From Escherichia coli (GTDB taxonomy: Bacteria > Pseudomonadota > Gammaproteobacteria > Enterobacterales > Enterobacteriaceae), in assembly GCF_030013595.1 (NCBI RefSeq), contig NZ_CP122769.1: 64,000 bases of DNA. One strand, written 5' to 3'. The position numbers were made by a program. Within the stretch, counting starts at the first letter, position 1. Every line of letters begins with the position of its first letter. Below, piece by piece: positions 42,001-51,000 of this stretch.

Positions 42001-45000
42001 GCGACTTCAAAGCCGCATGGTTGAGTTTTTGGCTAAACGATATCCCGCATCAAAGCTGACAATTGAAGTCTTCGAACCAGCACAAGATATTCCTGATGGG
42101 AAAAAGGGTATCGACTGGAACGATGTTCTCCAGTTAACAGGGCAGGATGGATTCCCGATTCACTGGGCTCCTGAATGTCTTAATCAGCTGTAACAACGAT
42201 AACTCCCCCGCTTTTTGCGGGGGGGGTTATCTTATCAATATTATATTTTAAAATTGTATTGATAAGATAACCGCTTTCCTTCGTGATAATTACCTGCCTT
42301 TAAGGTCTTTTCACGGCTGAGATGCTTGCTCAGTTAAATAAATGTGCGGTACTACTGGCTATGGTCGGTTGTATGACATGGTTATTCCATAAACTATTAA
42401 AACCCATAACGGGAGTATTACCGTTATGGTGATGCTCGTCGTTTTACATCGGAGAGCATTTTAATGAATTTTCAAATTAACGAAGTTTTTAATAAATTTG
42501 CTGCTGTTATAAAATCGCGCATCGTCAATGAACCATCGTCATGCTATTTGCTGCATGATAATGAGATAGATATAACGATTTTGAAACATAGCATATTAGA
42601 AAATGACAGAAACCTGTTGTACGTAGTTCGTCCTTCAGGAACGTGTTTGTTGCGTTGTGACAAATATTTCTATCCGAAATATTATCTTCGTTGCCGTGGA
42701 GATTATAAGTCATTCATATATGTCCATCTTGATCTACATAGTGGTGAAGCTAAAGAAATCACATGGGAGCAAGCAGACGATATGCTGTCTAGTCCAGGAA
42801 AACCCCCATTAAAAGGGAATCTTGGACGATTTGAGTATATAAAAGTTGTGGTTGAGGACCTTCGTATTCGAGGTTACGCTGATTATCTTCCTGCGTATAA
42901 TCTTGATGACCTTCGCCGTTTTGCCTTACAGGACGACCGCCCATCCCTTGTCAGATACATTGACAATGTCATGGCAACGGTCTGATTGATTGCTAATTGA
43001 TTTACATATTTTCCCTGATGGCCAACCTGCATCAGGGAGGCCTCAATAACGAATGGAGGCTGTATGAAGTTAGCTACGGACCTGGTAAAAGCTATTTTGA
43101 TTAGAAATGGCGTTGAACCAGTAAATATAAGCGAATCATCTAAGTTATCTTTGAAACAACCACTGACAGAACTTAAATTCAGTTTATATTTGCGAACTGA
43201 GCATTTATCTCACTTCCTACCCGGTTATGTTTATTCTATAAAAGAATGTCCACTGTCATATGACATCGGGATCGAAATTCAGAAAATCTTCGAAAGTTTA
43301 CATTTGTTAAACGAAGAATTTGAATCCCTCGGTTTTGTTTCTGTATGGATAGAAATGCATCAAAGCATTTTTGAACAAAGTCGGTTTAAGAAAAGTAACT
43401 TTACTTTTCGGGAGGAAGAGGTCGAGCTTGCTAAAGGGCTTGTTTGTTCTCACAATTCACAAATAAGTAATGCGGCTTATTTCTGGCTTCAGCACTTTGA
43501 GGAGTTTATGATTTATGTTCGTAATAAGCTTATCGACCTCTTTCGAGAGGCCTATGACCTGATCCTTGGAATGCAGCAAGTATTTTTCATTCGGGAAAAG
43601 GAAGAGCTGTTGAAAACTATAAGTTATGGCGATGAGCTGTATGAGGTGAAATTCATGGCGGCTGAGCTTTACTCTATCGAACAGAACTTAAAGTGTTCTG
43701 AATCGATAAGTACAAAATCTCAAGCTTCGGCATATATTAACCGCATCCGTGAGTTTGTGCGTTCGGGGTGGAGGCAGGGCTATATAGTCTGCCATCATAA
43801 GCGAAGTAATCAAATTTCATCATTGTCATTACCGATGTACTTGAAAGATACGTCAGGCCGAAGTGCTCGAAAGCGAGTAAAACGTCTTATATCTTCTACA
43901 GTTTGTGGTAGAAATAAAGATTTAGGTCTTACAGATTTTTAATTAAATTATACCCATGTGGGGATCACACCCCATATGGGAGTGATCCCTTTTTTTATTG
44001 AGAGAGGATCACATGAAAATTATCGAAAAAATCATTAATGCCTTTTTGGTTGTTCAACATAAAAAAATACAGGTTAAAAACATTACATTTTTAGACAATG
44101 GGCAGGGCATGTTCTCTGGTATGTCTTTTGATGCTGATGTTTCACTGGAGTTTATGTATGAATCAGCAAAAGCATATAGTTCTTGTTTCTTTGATATTCC
44201 CTTTCCAGGTTTTGAAGATGCAAATCTGGAGGAAATTACGAAATTTCAATTAGATGCTTTGAAGCAAAGAAAGAATCATTCTTTCTTTGTTAACCATTTG
44301 AGGTTTCCTATAGTTTTAAGGGAAGGGTGCAAAATCGAAAGAGGAGAAGTCTATTCAATTTCGAATTGCACTTATAATAAAGAAAGATTGCAGTATCTTT
44401 TTTCTCAGGATATTTACGGTAAGTTGTATAATTCCTTAGAGAAAGAATTAAGCTCGTTTTTCTCATTTATCAATGTTGAGGTGCACGAGTTGTTAAAAGA
44501 TGCTGTATGCTTTGCATTAAAAATCCTGAATAAGATATCTTTGGATACACCTGAAAGACTTATTAAAGCTTTTAATTATCGTGACTGGTATTGTAGTTAC
44601 GATGTTGAGCTTTTTAGGAAAGGCTTACCTGGTCATATTCTGGAAGAGCTCATTGCTCCAGATATCTTACTTTCAGACCTTAACGGTTGTAGAAAAATAC
44701 TTAGAAATGCAAAACGATTTCTAAATGGACATACACAAACCAATTGTGTTTATATTAAATATGAATGGTGGTTGGGGCCTGTTGATACCTCACACTCAGC
44801 TAAGTTGATGTCTGACAAAGAAATTAATAACCGAAGTGACTTGAAGAATTTTTCAAAGGTCTTTTTCAAAGAGTGTTTAAGTTCTGGTAAGTCGGAATAT
44901 GAAAACCATCTTAGTGAAAAAGAACATGCGCTTCGCTATAATTATTAATTAAAATTATTTTCTCCCATAGGGATTTCTCCCTATGGGAGAAATCCCTCTA

Positions 45001-48000: not shown

Positions 48001-51000
48001 AAACAACTCCTTAAAACAGTTCAAACCAGAAATGCATGTACCTTCTGAAGAACTCTTTTATAATTAATCTAACCCATCCGGGAACCTGCTTCCCGGTGGG
48101 AAGCACTTCCTTTTTAGTCATGAGGTAGTGTAAATGTTTAAAGAATCTGACCACGTGGAATTTGTTAGTGCCTTTCTTTATCAAAATTTAGGCCTTAATG
48201 TTTCCGCTGACGATATAACCGTTCAATTATCTGATACTTCGTTCGACAAAGTAACCTTTGATTACGATGTAGATATCGATAATTTAAATTGTATGTTGGA
48301 TCTCTACATATCTGAGCTAATAAAGCACAACGCATCTTACTCCGATTCTATTCTTTTGAAACAAAAAATAATTTATTTTCTTGGAGTATTTAAGAATTTC
48401 GGATTTTTTACGTTTGATATTCGCGGATATAGTAATACTTTAAGCCCAGTTAAAGTTATTGATATTGTTTCAATGATTATTAATGACTGTGAAGAGTTAT
48501 CTAAAGCTAATTCTTCTACTGATGCTATAAGAAATCTTTATCTCGATAAAATGAAGGTGGATGGGAAAGTGTTAGTTGCGAAATTTGCACTTAAACAGTT
48601 TTTTCATTCCGACTTTGGTGACTTTATCTCATTTGTCGAGAAAAGAATTACAGATTGTCTTAATGAAACTTTAAGGATTATCAAAGCTGTTGAACATGGC
48701 TTTGTACGTGTAGGGCAGCATAAGATTAATCGCCGTATTAATGATGACTTAAAGTTATGCATTGATTTCAATACTGATGATTATCCGGCAAATATGCCAG
48801 ATATATATATTAAGTTTAACGATACATTTGATGGGAACGGGGCGTTATATTGTGACAATGATGCCCTCATATCCCTCTATACCGATGTTGCTTCAATTAT
48901 CAATGTGCCGGTGATGATGGAAGTAAGATTGATCAATAAAAGAGGGCGTGTTGTCTGTGATTCTTCGCATTCAACTTACGTATCTCTCGAAAGTAATGAC
49001 CGATACAGAGTAACTGATCGCACATTACTAATAACTGAAGCTTTTGACGATTTTCGTAACGCGTCTCAATGATCCTTTTGCTTCAGTCCAAAAAAGTAAC
49101 TTTGGTTGGCTGAAGACACTTGTCTATGACAATGTAAAATCTGTCGCTGGCATCTTCTTTTAGCTTAACCAAATTTTTATCTAACCCAGTGGGGAAGTCG
49201 CTTCCCTTCTGGGGCACTTCCTCTCAAATTCGAGGTAGTGTATATGACACATTCATCTGATGATAAAAACTATGTCCGAGCAGTTCTGAGTTATCTTGGC
49301 ATAGATTTTGATGAGGCGGATATAGTATTAAGTGTTTGCCATTGTCAAAGTGACGAGCTTTCTTTTACCTGTAATATCAAAGCTATTGAACTCAAGAATG
49401 CTGTTGATTTATATGTCGATAGTATCTCTGAGAATGAAATAGAAGCTTTAAACAGAGAATCTTTAAAATCGCGACTCTGTTACTTTCTTGAGGTGTTTGA
49501 CGCAGTCTCTGGTCAGTACCTTGAAATTTCAGGAAAACACTTTGCAACTAGTCGTTTTGAATATGATGATGTTTGTAGTGAAGTTCTTAGCATGTCTAAT
49601 GATGTTTCTCAGTCGAAAGGTTATGACCGGGATGAATATAACAGACTGATGCAGGTTGATGGTCAGGTTATGATTGCCCGTTTTGCTTTGCAACAGTTCT
49701 GGGATACTCATTTTATTGGACTAATAACATTTGTATCTGAGTCTATAACATCGAGCCTCTATAAAGCTTATGAAACTTTTAGTGATATTAGTTTGGCTTG
49801 CTATAAACTGAGTGAATATTCTTATTCACGCTCTATCAACAGTGAATTGACCCTTAATATTTCACTTAAAGAAAATGACTTCTGTGAGGACCTATCTGAT
49901 TGCTATATGGAAGATGAGGCTTTACCTTCTGGTAGGGTAATTTCTCGACGCAACAATGACTCCATAATAAGTATTTATGAGAGCTATGCTGCGGCTTCTT
50001 ATATTCCGATGATTGCATCTTTGGAAGTCGTTGATGAATACGGCGAAGTGGTTACTGACCTCTGCCATACCGTTTATGTTTCAGAGTTAACCGGTGGGCG
50101 GATTAAAATCCACGACCGTAATGACTTAGTATCTGAAGTTTTCGATAACCTAAGAAATTTAAATCTTGCAGTTGGAGATTCAGTTTCACAAGCTGCTTGA
50201 TTCTTTCCCTGATTTTGATTTTTTCTCACATACTCTTATGGCACGGTTTCCGTGCCTTTTTTTGCCTCGCTTACAAGCGTCTACTCCTCTTCTACCTATC
50301 CCACCTTACATCACCACTTAAAATCTATCTTTCTAATTCCATTATCCTTTTCGTAGCCTCTAATGCTCTGGTATGAACATACTCTTTAAACTCAAAAAAG
50401 TGCTATTAACGAAAAAAAATCCCTAAAGAGATTTGTATACTGTTCTCAACCAAGGAGAGCTCATGAATGAACTAAAATCCAAAAACGAGAACAGTACCAA
50501 AAGCAACTTTCCCCCGGTTGATAATCAGTTTTGCTTTTACCATGTTGATTTCAGCATAGAACGACTACTTTCTACGGCCGAGGATCTCCAGCTTGAGTAC
50601 ATCTTCCAGAAACCTGGAAGTGAAGTAAGAAAGGATTTGGTTGAGCGATTTGAACGTGGAGAGCGCTTTGTTACAGCTTCACACTGTGACAATTTCTGTG
50701 AAATCCTTGGTTGTCAAGGCCATCAGGAAAATGCATAAACCCATAAACCTACATTTCCACTTTTAAGGATGTTCACTAAAGAATGATTGGAGAAAGTATT
50801 TTTGACTGGGTAATTTACGGAATATCCATTTTGATATTTGCCTCAGCACTAATTGAAGGAAAGACAACTCGCTACCCAGCACTTTTTTTCTATGGGAGTT
50901 TAATTTTAATGTTAATCCTGATAGTTGCTGGAGGCCTTAACTGGTGGTTCTACAGGTCAAAATATGGCGCAGTAATCGTTATCTTCACAGTGGTTTCTTT

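Follow-up and report, generated by a model that had tools for sequence, protein, structure and literature searches.

In several described systems a messenger RNA (mRNA) controls access to a Shine-Dalgarno (SD) sequence by exchanging one pairing for another. In the translational control of repY and repZ on plasmid ColIb-P9 (IncI/IncB), reportedly the work of Asano and Mizobuchi, the downstream ribosome-binding site (RBS) of a plasmid mRNA is said to be closed by a hairpin and kept open by the loop of an upstream hairpin that complements the closing strand; the two hairpins, separated by about 100 nucleotides (nt), make up a true pseudoknot, the RBS opens only when translation of the repY leader terminates within the closing hairpin, and the loop is blocked by an antisense RNA. 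In attenuation of the ermC and cat type, four segments pair 1:2 and 3:4 in the ground state, the SD lies in segment 4 and an alternative pairing of segment 3 frees it, which in ermC is the 2:3 pairing, brought about when a drug stalls a ribosome on a leader peptide overlapping segment 1. The equilibrium structure also closes the SD in the MS2 maturation gene, the hok mRNA of plasmid R1 and lambda cIII, where a competing local hairpin can hold the closing strand, which lies upstream, and so permit translation, and RNA thermometers such as ROSE and fourU pair the SD in a hairpin directly 5' of the start codon, using weak, mismatched stems that melt at 30-42°C and need no decoy strand. Here we describe an RNA module of about 60 nt which recurs at 12 junctions between genes of an IncHI2 plasmid, within a 64,000-nt stretch of Escherichia coli DNA (contig NZ_CP122769.1; hereafter the window). 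We propose, at roughly even odds (about 0.5), that this module acts in cis as a gate on translation initiation of each cistron.

A three-helix module directly 5' of nearly every gene of two operons

The module occupies the position directly 5' of the start codon for nearly every gene of two operons (u1 to the toprim gene, and g0 to g5) and is found between 34.4 and 49.2 kb on the plus strand only. It precedes g0, g1, g2, g3, g4 and g5 as well as five or six unrelated genes of the upstream operon, among them those for a DUF3150 and a VWA protein (Table 1). Hairpin X has 9-15 base pairs (bp), with a CCC/GGG clamp at its base and GGG/CCC near the loop. Hairpin Z follows immediately, after a linker of 0-6 nt; its 5' arm, strand d, forms 6-11 canonical pairs with its 3' arm, strand e, which contains the SD and ends 4-11 nt 5' of the ATG. 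A further strand, b, made up of the inner 5' arm and the loop of X, is also complementary to d, and the hairpin that these two can form, Y, excludes both X and Z. The sequence varies from junction to junction and the complementarities are kept.

We regard the module as a variant of known alternative-structure translational control that is absent from Rfam and from the literature searched. Compared with ColIb-P9, X and Z abut, Y takes part of the X stem, no antisense RNA is evident and 12 junctions are involved instead of one rep gene. Compared with ermC, the alternative pairing joins inner segment 1 and its loop to segment 3, most junctions have no leader peptide and at half of all junctions the upstream stop codon is too distant. 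The MS2, hok and cIII elements are single-copy, and the MS2 trap hairpin is transcribed first, whereas X precedes Y. Unlike the stems of RNA thermometers, Z is stable.

Over the region concerned the window is 100% identical to the Salmonella plasmid NZ_CP117034 (232 kb), and the same identity extends, one insertion aside, to hundreds of IncHI2 plasmids. As an intact reference we used pM160133_p1 (locus L001; IncHI2A, MOBH, MPF_F), in which the Tra2 genes trhN and trhI are followed by three hypothetical genes (u1, u2 and u3), an AAA ATPase gene, a small open reading frame (ORF), the genes for the DUF3150 protein, the VWA protein, a protein of 73 amino acids (aa; h222) and a toprim-domain protein, a strong terminator, g0, the hypothetical genes g1 to g5 and a second terminator. 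The loci compared with it came from IncHI1 (L002), IncHI1B-type (L003) and Klebsiella IncFIB/HI1B plasmids (L009), and from two more distant relatives reached through proteins of the g4/g5 family (L005 and L008); synteny of the region is kept in all five. In Salmonella, E. coli and Enterobacter, IncHI1 and IncHI2 plasmids rank among the major vehicles of multidrug resistance, and roughly 17 kb of their conserved backbone, beside the Tra2 transfer genes, is concerned here, without assigned function.

Evidence for a conserved, junction-specific RNA structure

Ten of the 13 junction stretches folded gave a two-hairpin structure as their minimum free energy (MFE) form. Folding z-scores lay between -3 and -6.9 for most junction RNAs, and in 10 of 12 cases none of 200 dinucleotide shuffles folded as well. 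Upstream of module genes the mean MFE was -28.4 kcal/mol, as against -11.5 kcal/mol for 32 other genes of the plasmid (Mann-Whitney p=3e-7), and at least 75% of the SD was paired in the MFE structure of 40 out of 43 modules. When the 64-kb window was scanned with a loose descriptor, 11 copies were returned, all of them on the plus strand within 34375-49241 and each with its end at an annotated start; background matches elsewhere were weak and mostly inside long ORFs.

The complementarities are specific to each junction. For the reference locus, duplex energies of cognate strands, compared with non-cognate pairs of strands taken from different junctions of the same plasmid, were -17.0 versus -9.0 kcal/mol for X, -13.2 versus -6.6 kcal/mol for Y and -10.9 versus -5.3 kcal/mol for Z, and this cognate preference was significant for all three helices in each of the IncHI2, IncHI1 and IncHI1B-type loci (permutation p<1e-4). 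The strands also change together: at the g1>g2 junction, between IncHI2 and IncHI1, b goes from AUCAC to AUUAC, d from GUGAU to GUAAU and e from AUCAC to AUUAC. Compensatory and triple (b/d/e) changes likewise occur in the more distant lineages, whose proteins are only 20-40% identical, and the X/Y/Z architecture is kept in L005, L008 and L009 despite unrecognisably different sequence, which makes six plasmid lineages in all. Module identity is 90% between the IncHI1A and HI1B types and 79% between IncHI2 and IncHI1, where synonymous divergence (dS) is 0.3-0.6 or saturated. Alignment of the 43 modules with MAFFT and RNAalifold brought X into register but not Z and yielded only 6 consensus pairs; for this reason we used per-sequence folding together with the cognate/non-cognate permutation tests.

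Stable hairpins such as X, standing between cistrons, might merely stabilise, insulate or process the mRNA, in the manner of repetitive extragenic palindromic (REP) elements or of the intercistronic C(UUCG)G hairpins of T4, the complementarity to SD and decoy being a side effect of G/C-rich arms. The homologous toprim/AAA/DUF3150/VWA cluster of the Aeromonas media plasmid pAeme5 (NZ_CP038449, 6943-25590) carries, in place of X/Y/Z, two to four C(UUCG)G mini-hairpins before many of its genes (e.g. AAUCCUUCGGGAUAUGACGCCUUCGGGCA...), so that intercistronic hairpins as such may be under selection. A purely passive role nevertheless appears unlikely: the cognate-specific complementarity of Y and Z greatly exceeds what a common GGG/CCC would give (cognate pairs are stronger by about 6 kcal/mol, p<1e-4), b, d and e covary as a triple, and the distance to the start codon is fixed.

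The same imperfect inverted repeats between genes of one direction could also be read at the DNA level, as attC-like cassette junctions used by a nearby tyrosine recombinase or as single-strand initiation sites. Such a function would explain the gain and loss of array members, of which there are 0, 2, 4 or 5, and a conserved tyrosine recombinase gene does lie about 5 kb downstream on the opposite strand. We consider this highly improbable. G-U pairs are common (84 of 869 pairs, 10%) and the sense strand folds better in 35 of the 43 modules, from which the structure belongs to the sense strand, consistent with mRNA. Cores of the RYYYAAC/GTTRRRY type are absent from the alignment of the 43 copies, whose ends read (A)CCC... 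and ...GGG; moreover, the same module stands between core genes (AAA, DUF3150, VWA) that keep one order in every lineage, and one arm is always the SD.

No Rfam family matched the window at gathering score, and within 33000-50500 only four matches, all at chance level, were obtained at E<=1; a literature search returned no description of these hairpins in IncHI plasmids. About twelve consecutive genes sharing a single RBS-closing RNA device thus point to a regulatory layer absent from Rfam and from the literature searched.

Predicted action of the module on translation initiation

In the predicted ground state X and Z would both be formed, the anti-SD strand d pairing with the SD region e and closing the RBS. 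Decoy b, a copy of the SD region located in the inner 5' arm and loop of X, would be able to capture d, giving Y and leaving the SD free. At 37°C the calculated net cost of opening is about 9 kcal/mol (mean -28.2 kcal/mol for the full module versus -19.7 kcal/mol for the best structure without e). With e unavailable, Y is the MFE structure in 22 of 48 modules and the mean open state of -19.7 kcal/mol compares with -16.6 kcal/mol for X alone; as X and Y are nearly isoenergetic, the module appears poised, and anything weakening X or holding e would be expected to flip it open. It is this signature of a poised switch that leads us to read the module as a cis-acting gate on translation initiation. 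The trigger could be ribosomes that complete translation of the upstream cistron or, in front of g0, of a leader mini-ORF, which is conceivable for only about half of the junctions; alternatively, only transcripts that are nascent or have recently been initiated might be translated, as long as the RNA has not relaxed to X and Z, or a common RNA-binding factor might intervene. A gate of this kind would represent a compact, modular and naturally reiterated three-way alternative pairing between cistrons, of interest for operon engineering.

Several points weigh against a gate. Every functional statement made here is inferred from sequence, and polycistronic transcription is an assumption. The closed state, at about 9 kcal/mol net, is very stable. 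The gap between the upstream stop codon and X exceeds 12 nt in 24 of 49 junctions, beyond the reach of a terminating ribosome, and the position of the module follows the downstream ATG and not the upstream stop. When the outer 6 nt of the X 5' arm were masked, the SD was freed in only about 18 of 43 predicted structures. Finally, a U-run follows the Y hairpin at several junctions, where Y could instead act as a terminator.

The distances to the stop codon bear directly on a relay model, in which a ribosome terminating on the upstream cistron, or on the g0 leader mini-ORF, would unwind the base of X so that b captures d and the next SD opens, the operon being translated as a chain dependent on its first gene. 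Its topology is that of ermC-type attenuation, with a 1:2 plus 3:4 ground state and an alternative pairing that frees the SD. X begins no more than 12 nt from the stop codon in 25 of the 49 junctions (at most 7 nt in 11, 8-12 nt in 14), and a 15-nt mask applied from the stop codon onward flips the g3>g4 and DUF3150 junctions to Y. A conserved ATGACATGG mini-ORF ends at or near X in the five lineages where g0 has its own upstream region, and in L009, where g0 comes directly after the toprim gene, the junction is a normal one of 68 nt. We hold this relay to be a tentative possibility, since the gaps of the other 24 junctions, which reach 116 nt in the g4>g5 junctions, place X out of ribosome reach, it is the downstream start codon that anchors the module, the mini-ORF stops at different positions relative to X in different lineages and the mini-ORF has no clear SD.

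The U-runs raise a different question, namely whether the junctions are transcriptional attenuators with Y as intrinsic terminator and X as antiterminator, which would produce a polarity gradient along the operon and make the SD pairing secondary. A terminator scan detected Y forms at 37282-37312, 48087-48105 and 42413-37, d is followed by runs of 5-8 U in IncHI2, at the junctions of DUF3150, VWA, g2 and g4, and in L005 and L009, at several junctions, and X and Y are nearly isoenergetic before e is made. However, the U-run is not conserved, being mostly absent from the orthologous IncHI1 junctions and never present at h222, g1, g3 or g5; attenuation leaves the extended, covarying d:e complementarity, which always includes the SD, without explanation, and X, transcribed first, would normally pre-empt Y. 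As a general account it seems to us doubtful, somewhat more so than the ribosome relay, and partial attenuation at some IncHI2 junctions is possible. On the opposite strand, the X hairpins at 38479-38504, 42404-42429 and 44959-44992 are followed by T-runs when read in the minus direction and score as intrinsic terminators; they could also stop antisense transcription.

Going further than a gate on each cistron, the X/Y/Z module might constitute an undescribed class of riboregulator, autonomous and poised (bistable), that is repeated ahead of nearly all cistrons of the two operons. Because X and Y are isoenergetic and Z locks the closed state, each mRNA could be translated only during its synthesis or under continuous initiation, after which it would silence itself; alternatively, all cistrons would open together through one common factor. 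We offer this as speculation. If it were true, a whole set of IncHI backbone genes, among them the fast-turnover g1-g5 array, would be expressed in one short, coordinated burst, for instance directly after arrival in a new host.

Five other candidate structures were considered and set aside. An H-type pseudoknot (X plus loop:d) was rejected on inferred geometry, as the linker of 0-6 nt is too short for a stem of 9-12 bp and Y uses bases of the X stem. Direct repeats of a protein-binding palindrome do not fit arms that are inverted repeats (CCCATAGGG pairs with CCCTATGGG at g2>g3), and CsrA-type GGA sites in b and e do not fit several decoys without GGA. IncHI plasmids show temperature-dependent transfer; an RNA thermometer was rejected on the stability of Z, given its number of canonical pairs and the energies calculated above. 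REP elements and bacterial interspersed mosaic elements (BIME) were rejected because the copies are alike in architecture and not in sequence, with only the CCC/GGG clamps conserved.

The g1-g5 protein family and its surroundings

The sequence-only reading of this region had drawn attention to five or six similar-sized genes at 43064-50200, arranged head-to-tail and encoding proteins of about 300 aa. The arrangement is borne out by the ORFs and the family members number five, g1 to g5; the higher count probably arose from two middle ORFs of 390 and 266 aa, which are istA and istB of an insertion sequence (IS) of the IS21 family. The last two genes are the clear paralogues that they had been taken for (g4 versus g5: blastp 27% identity over 309 aa, E=1e-36; hhalign 99.9%), and the claimed GC-rich hairpin (48073-48100 before g4, 49185-49213 before g5) and leader GAGGTAGTGTA(A/T)ATG are present in front of both. 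The start of the last gene, placed at a GTG at 49238, is most likely the ATG at 49244, and that of g2 is most likely the ATG at 44013 and not the TTG at 43998, both according to the RefSeq annotation.

It had further been proposed that gene and upstream signal were duplicated together. The g4 and g5 modules are indeed the most similar pair among ten (74% versus a median of 63%, the latter from a permissive global alignment), which lends mild support to a joint duplication of gene and leader. The signal itself is general, and because the same architecture precedes unrelated genes, duplication alone is insufficient to explain hairpin and leader; the module predates the g4/g5 duplication.

Kinship among the other three members, described as weaker, is weak at the pairwise level and real at the profile level. 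Pairwise BLAST links g4 to g5 and, weakly, g2 to g3 (1e-4), and no other pair. With small hhalign profiles built from orthologues in five lineages, g2 and g3 matched at 98.1% (E=9e-14), g1 and g3 at 93.7% (E=2e-7, collinear over 240 columns), g1 and g4/g5 at 57% (E=1e-4) and g2/g3 and g4/g5 at 30% (E=6e-4). Each of the four alignments runs collinearly through about 230 columns, and unrelated neighbours scored below 1% on short, non-collinear stretches. AlphaFold2 models of g4 (mean predicted local distance difference test, pLDDT, 90; predicted template modelling score, pTM, 0.84) and g3 (pLDDT 82; pTM 0.79) show the same succession of helices and strands and match, in Foldseek, the same uncharacterised Dickeya and Photorhabdus proteins, A0A5B8HP55 and A0A6L9JU38. 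These comparisons define two clear subgroups, g1/g2/g3 and g4/g5, which probably form one superfamily with a shared fold. Against this stand the modest HH probabilities and shallow profiles that link the two subgroups, and the fact that members of the g4/g5 family were not directly retrieved among the 50 matches listed for the g3 model.

The family carries no annotation. RefSeq labels g1-g5 hypothetical; NCBIfam, PHROGs and PADLOC gave nothing significant for g0-g5, u1 and u3, and g1-g5 and their distant relatives matched no family at E<0.001. A weak match of the g4 N-terminus to phrog_10163 (E=0.005) was not repeated in ten distant relatives. When the g4/g5 profile was run in full with HMMER against 1.84 billion representatives, only 41 clusters were returned, about 10 of them full-length; a word-indexed homologue search with g2 found IncHI-type proteins only, and a protein search with g4 matched about 1,400 plasmid records. 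No neighbour of the g4 fold was found in the PDB, which makes g1-g5 a small family without PDB structural neighbour, g4 being the member tested. In the AlphaFold database, Foldseek matched the g4 model to uncharacterised enterobacterial proteins of about 300 aa (template modelling scores 0.5-0.66, E 1e-10 to 1e-4), some of them labelled NgrC; these are similar in length to g4, and two are also matched by the g3 model, but sequence identity is only 8-14%, and the label comes without an attached function or solved structure. A literature search returned nothing relevant on these genes in IncHI plasmids or on 'NgrC'. The g4 model also matched, weakly, one 708-aa protein carrying DUF1738, which we take to be the ArdC N-terminal domain; this is the sole hint towards the anti-defence or immunity role previously suggested, which is a guess. 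The invariant columns of the g4/g5 family are A, L, Y, M, V, F and R; as they include no His, Cys, Asp or Glu, they do not resemble a catalytic site. The isoelectric point (pI) is acidic for g4 and g5 (4.3-4.8) and neutral to slightly basic for g1-g3.

The description of the family as rapidly diversifying was overstated. Between IncHI1A-type and IncHI1B-type orthologues the ratio of nonsynonymous to synonymous substitution rates (dN/dS) of g1-g5 is 0.14-0.24, compared with 0.06-0.22 for most flanking genes; g4 and g5 alone are slightly elevated, and h222 reaches 0.81 on a very low dS. By these ratios g1-g5 are under purifying selection and are real, constrained genes. Copy number does differ between related plasmids, at 5, 5, 5, 4, 2 and 0 in the six lineages: IncHI2, IncHI1 and L003 have g1-g5, L008 has a g2-like, a g3-like and two g5-like genes, L005 has one g1-like and one g4/g5-like gene, and in L009 g0 is directly followed by the downstream genes. 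Since whole members are gained or lost between lineages, the array is dispensable. Similarity extends beyond the last two genes, and nothing of a housekeeping type is annotated. We view g1-g5 as an old, IncHI-type-specific tandem family of non-enzymatic-looking proteins of about 300 aa; their variable copy number makes them reasonable candidates for host-interaction or establishment functions, and an accessory role in one of these is our guess.

In the window g3 is knocked out by the IS21-family element, which splits it after about codon 215; the 5' reading frame continues into the element and stops at 45688. The element measures 2.1 kb, is bounded by a TTAA(T) target duplication and ends of the TGT...ACA type, and has a GC content of 0.53 as against about 0.37 in its flanks. 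Identical plasmids annotate its ORFs as an IS21 family transposase and an IstB helper ATPase, which are unrelated to the g family. Most IncHI2 plasmids lack the element and carry an intact g3 of 306 aa; at a query coverage of at least 80% only two PLSDB plasmids (NZ_CP117034 and NZ_OY754830) carry it at this site, and in two others the region holds another IS21-like element, of the ISSso4 family.

Table 1. Position of the modules, genes and terminators in the window.
Feature	Position	Strand	Remarks
Module u1>u2	34375..34434	+	z=-3.6
Variant module u2>u3	34810..34872	+	MFE is a Y-type hairpin, z=-3.0; full X/Y/Z form in L009
Weak variant module u3>AAA ATPase	35848..35907	+	z=-1.8, weakest copy
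Module 5' of DUF3150 gene	37275..37333	+	z=-4.2; Y is a 14-bp hairpin, then a 7-U run
Module DUF3150>VWA	38479..38538	+	z=-5.2
Module VWA>73-aa gene (h222)	40563..40628	+	z=-5.4; in six lineages
Intrinsic terminator, strong	42198..42231	+	3' of toprim gene, end of upstream operon; perfect GC-rich 12-bp stem; also in terminator scan
Module 5' of g0	42404..42466	+	two-hairpin MFE, SD in 3' arm, z=-5.4; kept in 5 lineages
g0	42464..42985	+	173 aa, ORF and RefSeq; first gene of g0-g5 transcription unit; outside the family
Module g0>g1	43012..43066	+	z=-3.1
g1	43064..43942	+	292 aa, g1/g2/g3 subgroup; ORF and RefSeq coding sequence WP_000762004
Module g1>g2	43953..44015	+	z=-6.9; triple covariation IncHI2/IncHI1
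g2	44013..44948	+	311 aa; ORF and RefSeq
Module g2>g3	44959..45019	+	z=-5.9
g3, 5' part	45017..45661	+	codons 1 to about 215, interrupted; blastn against L001
IS21-family element	45662..47786	+	outside the family; istA 45762-46934, istB 46931-47731
g3, 3' remnant	47787..48067	+	100% identity to L001 22658-22938
Module g3>g4	48073..48136	+	z=-4.1; Y form terminator-like (48087-48105)
g4	48134..49072	+	312 aa, g4/g5 subgroup
Module g4>g5	49185..49246	+	z=-6.6; 112 nt past g4 stop, directly before g5 ATG
g5	49244..50200	+	318 aa, g4/g5 subgroup
Intrinsic terminator	50240..50263	+	3' of g5, end of g0-g5 unit; GGCACGG-TTT-CCGTGCC then TTTTTTT

The first genes of the two module-bearing operons, g0 and u1, are related: g0 is a distant homologue of the N-terminal half of u1 (33502-34374; hhalign 48%, E=2e-4; blastp of the L008 g0 against u1, 3e-6). 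The spacer before g0 (42232-42463; L001 19195-19464) contains a conserved inverted repeat, CTGAG-N7-CTCAG, and the conserved ATGACATGG block opens short ORFs that end at or near hairpin X in five lineages; the spacer may hold a promoter, an operator and a leader peptide. It is wholly absent from L009, where g0 lies 68 nt after the toprim gene. A promoter scan of the region found no excess of sigma-70-like sites (34 versus 44.5 expected).

Another spacer, between the 73-aa gene and the toprim gene (40848-40960), contains a long hairpin with a 19-bp outer stem and an inner 10-bp hairpin, which is nearly unchanged in all six lineages. The MFE of the whole spacer is about -63 kcal/mol and the outer helix pairs with the SD of the toprim gene; this hairpin, for which no Rfam match was found, may serve in single-strand initiation, act as a primase site or be an RNA element.

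Among the proteins of the region, conservation is highest by a wide margin in u2 (34432-34809, 125 aa), with 87% identity between IncHI2 and IncHI1, compared with 50-60% for its neighbours, and a dN/dS of 0.10. We consider u2 a candidate regulator. Both u2 and h222 were compared with Pfam as potential RNA binders, without a match. The VWA protein (38536-40554), with an overall pI of 4.35, has a long linker of low complexity, some 150 residues in length, which is extremely acidic and in which D, E, S and T abound. Downstream of the array, a Tus-like gene (52784-53764; DNA replication terminus site-binding protein, Pfam Ter) is conserved in all lineages examined and is followed by the opposite-strand tyrosine recombinase gene and then by hha.

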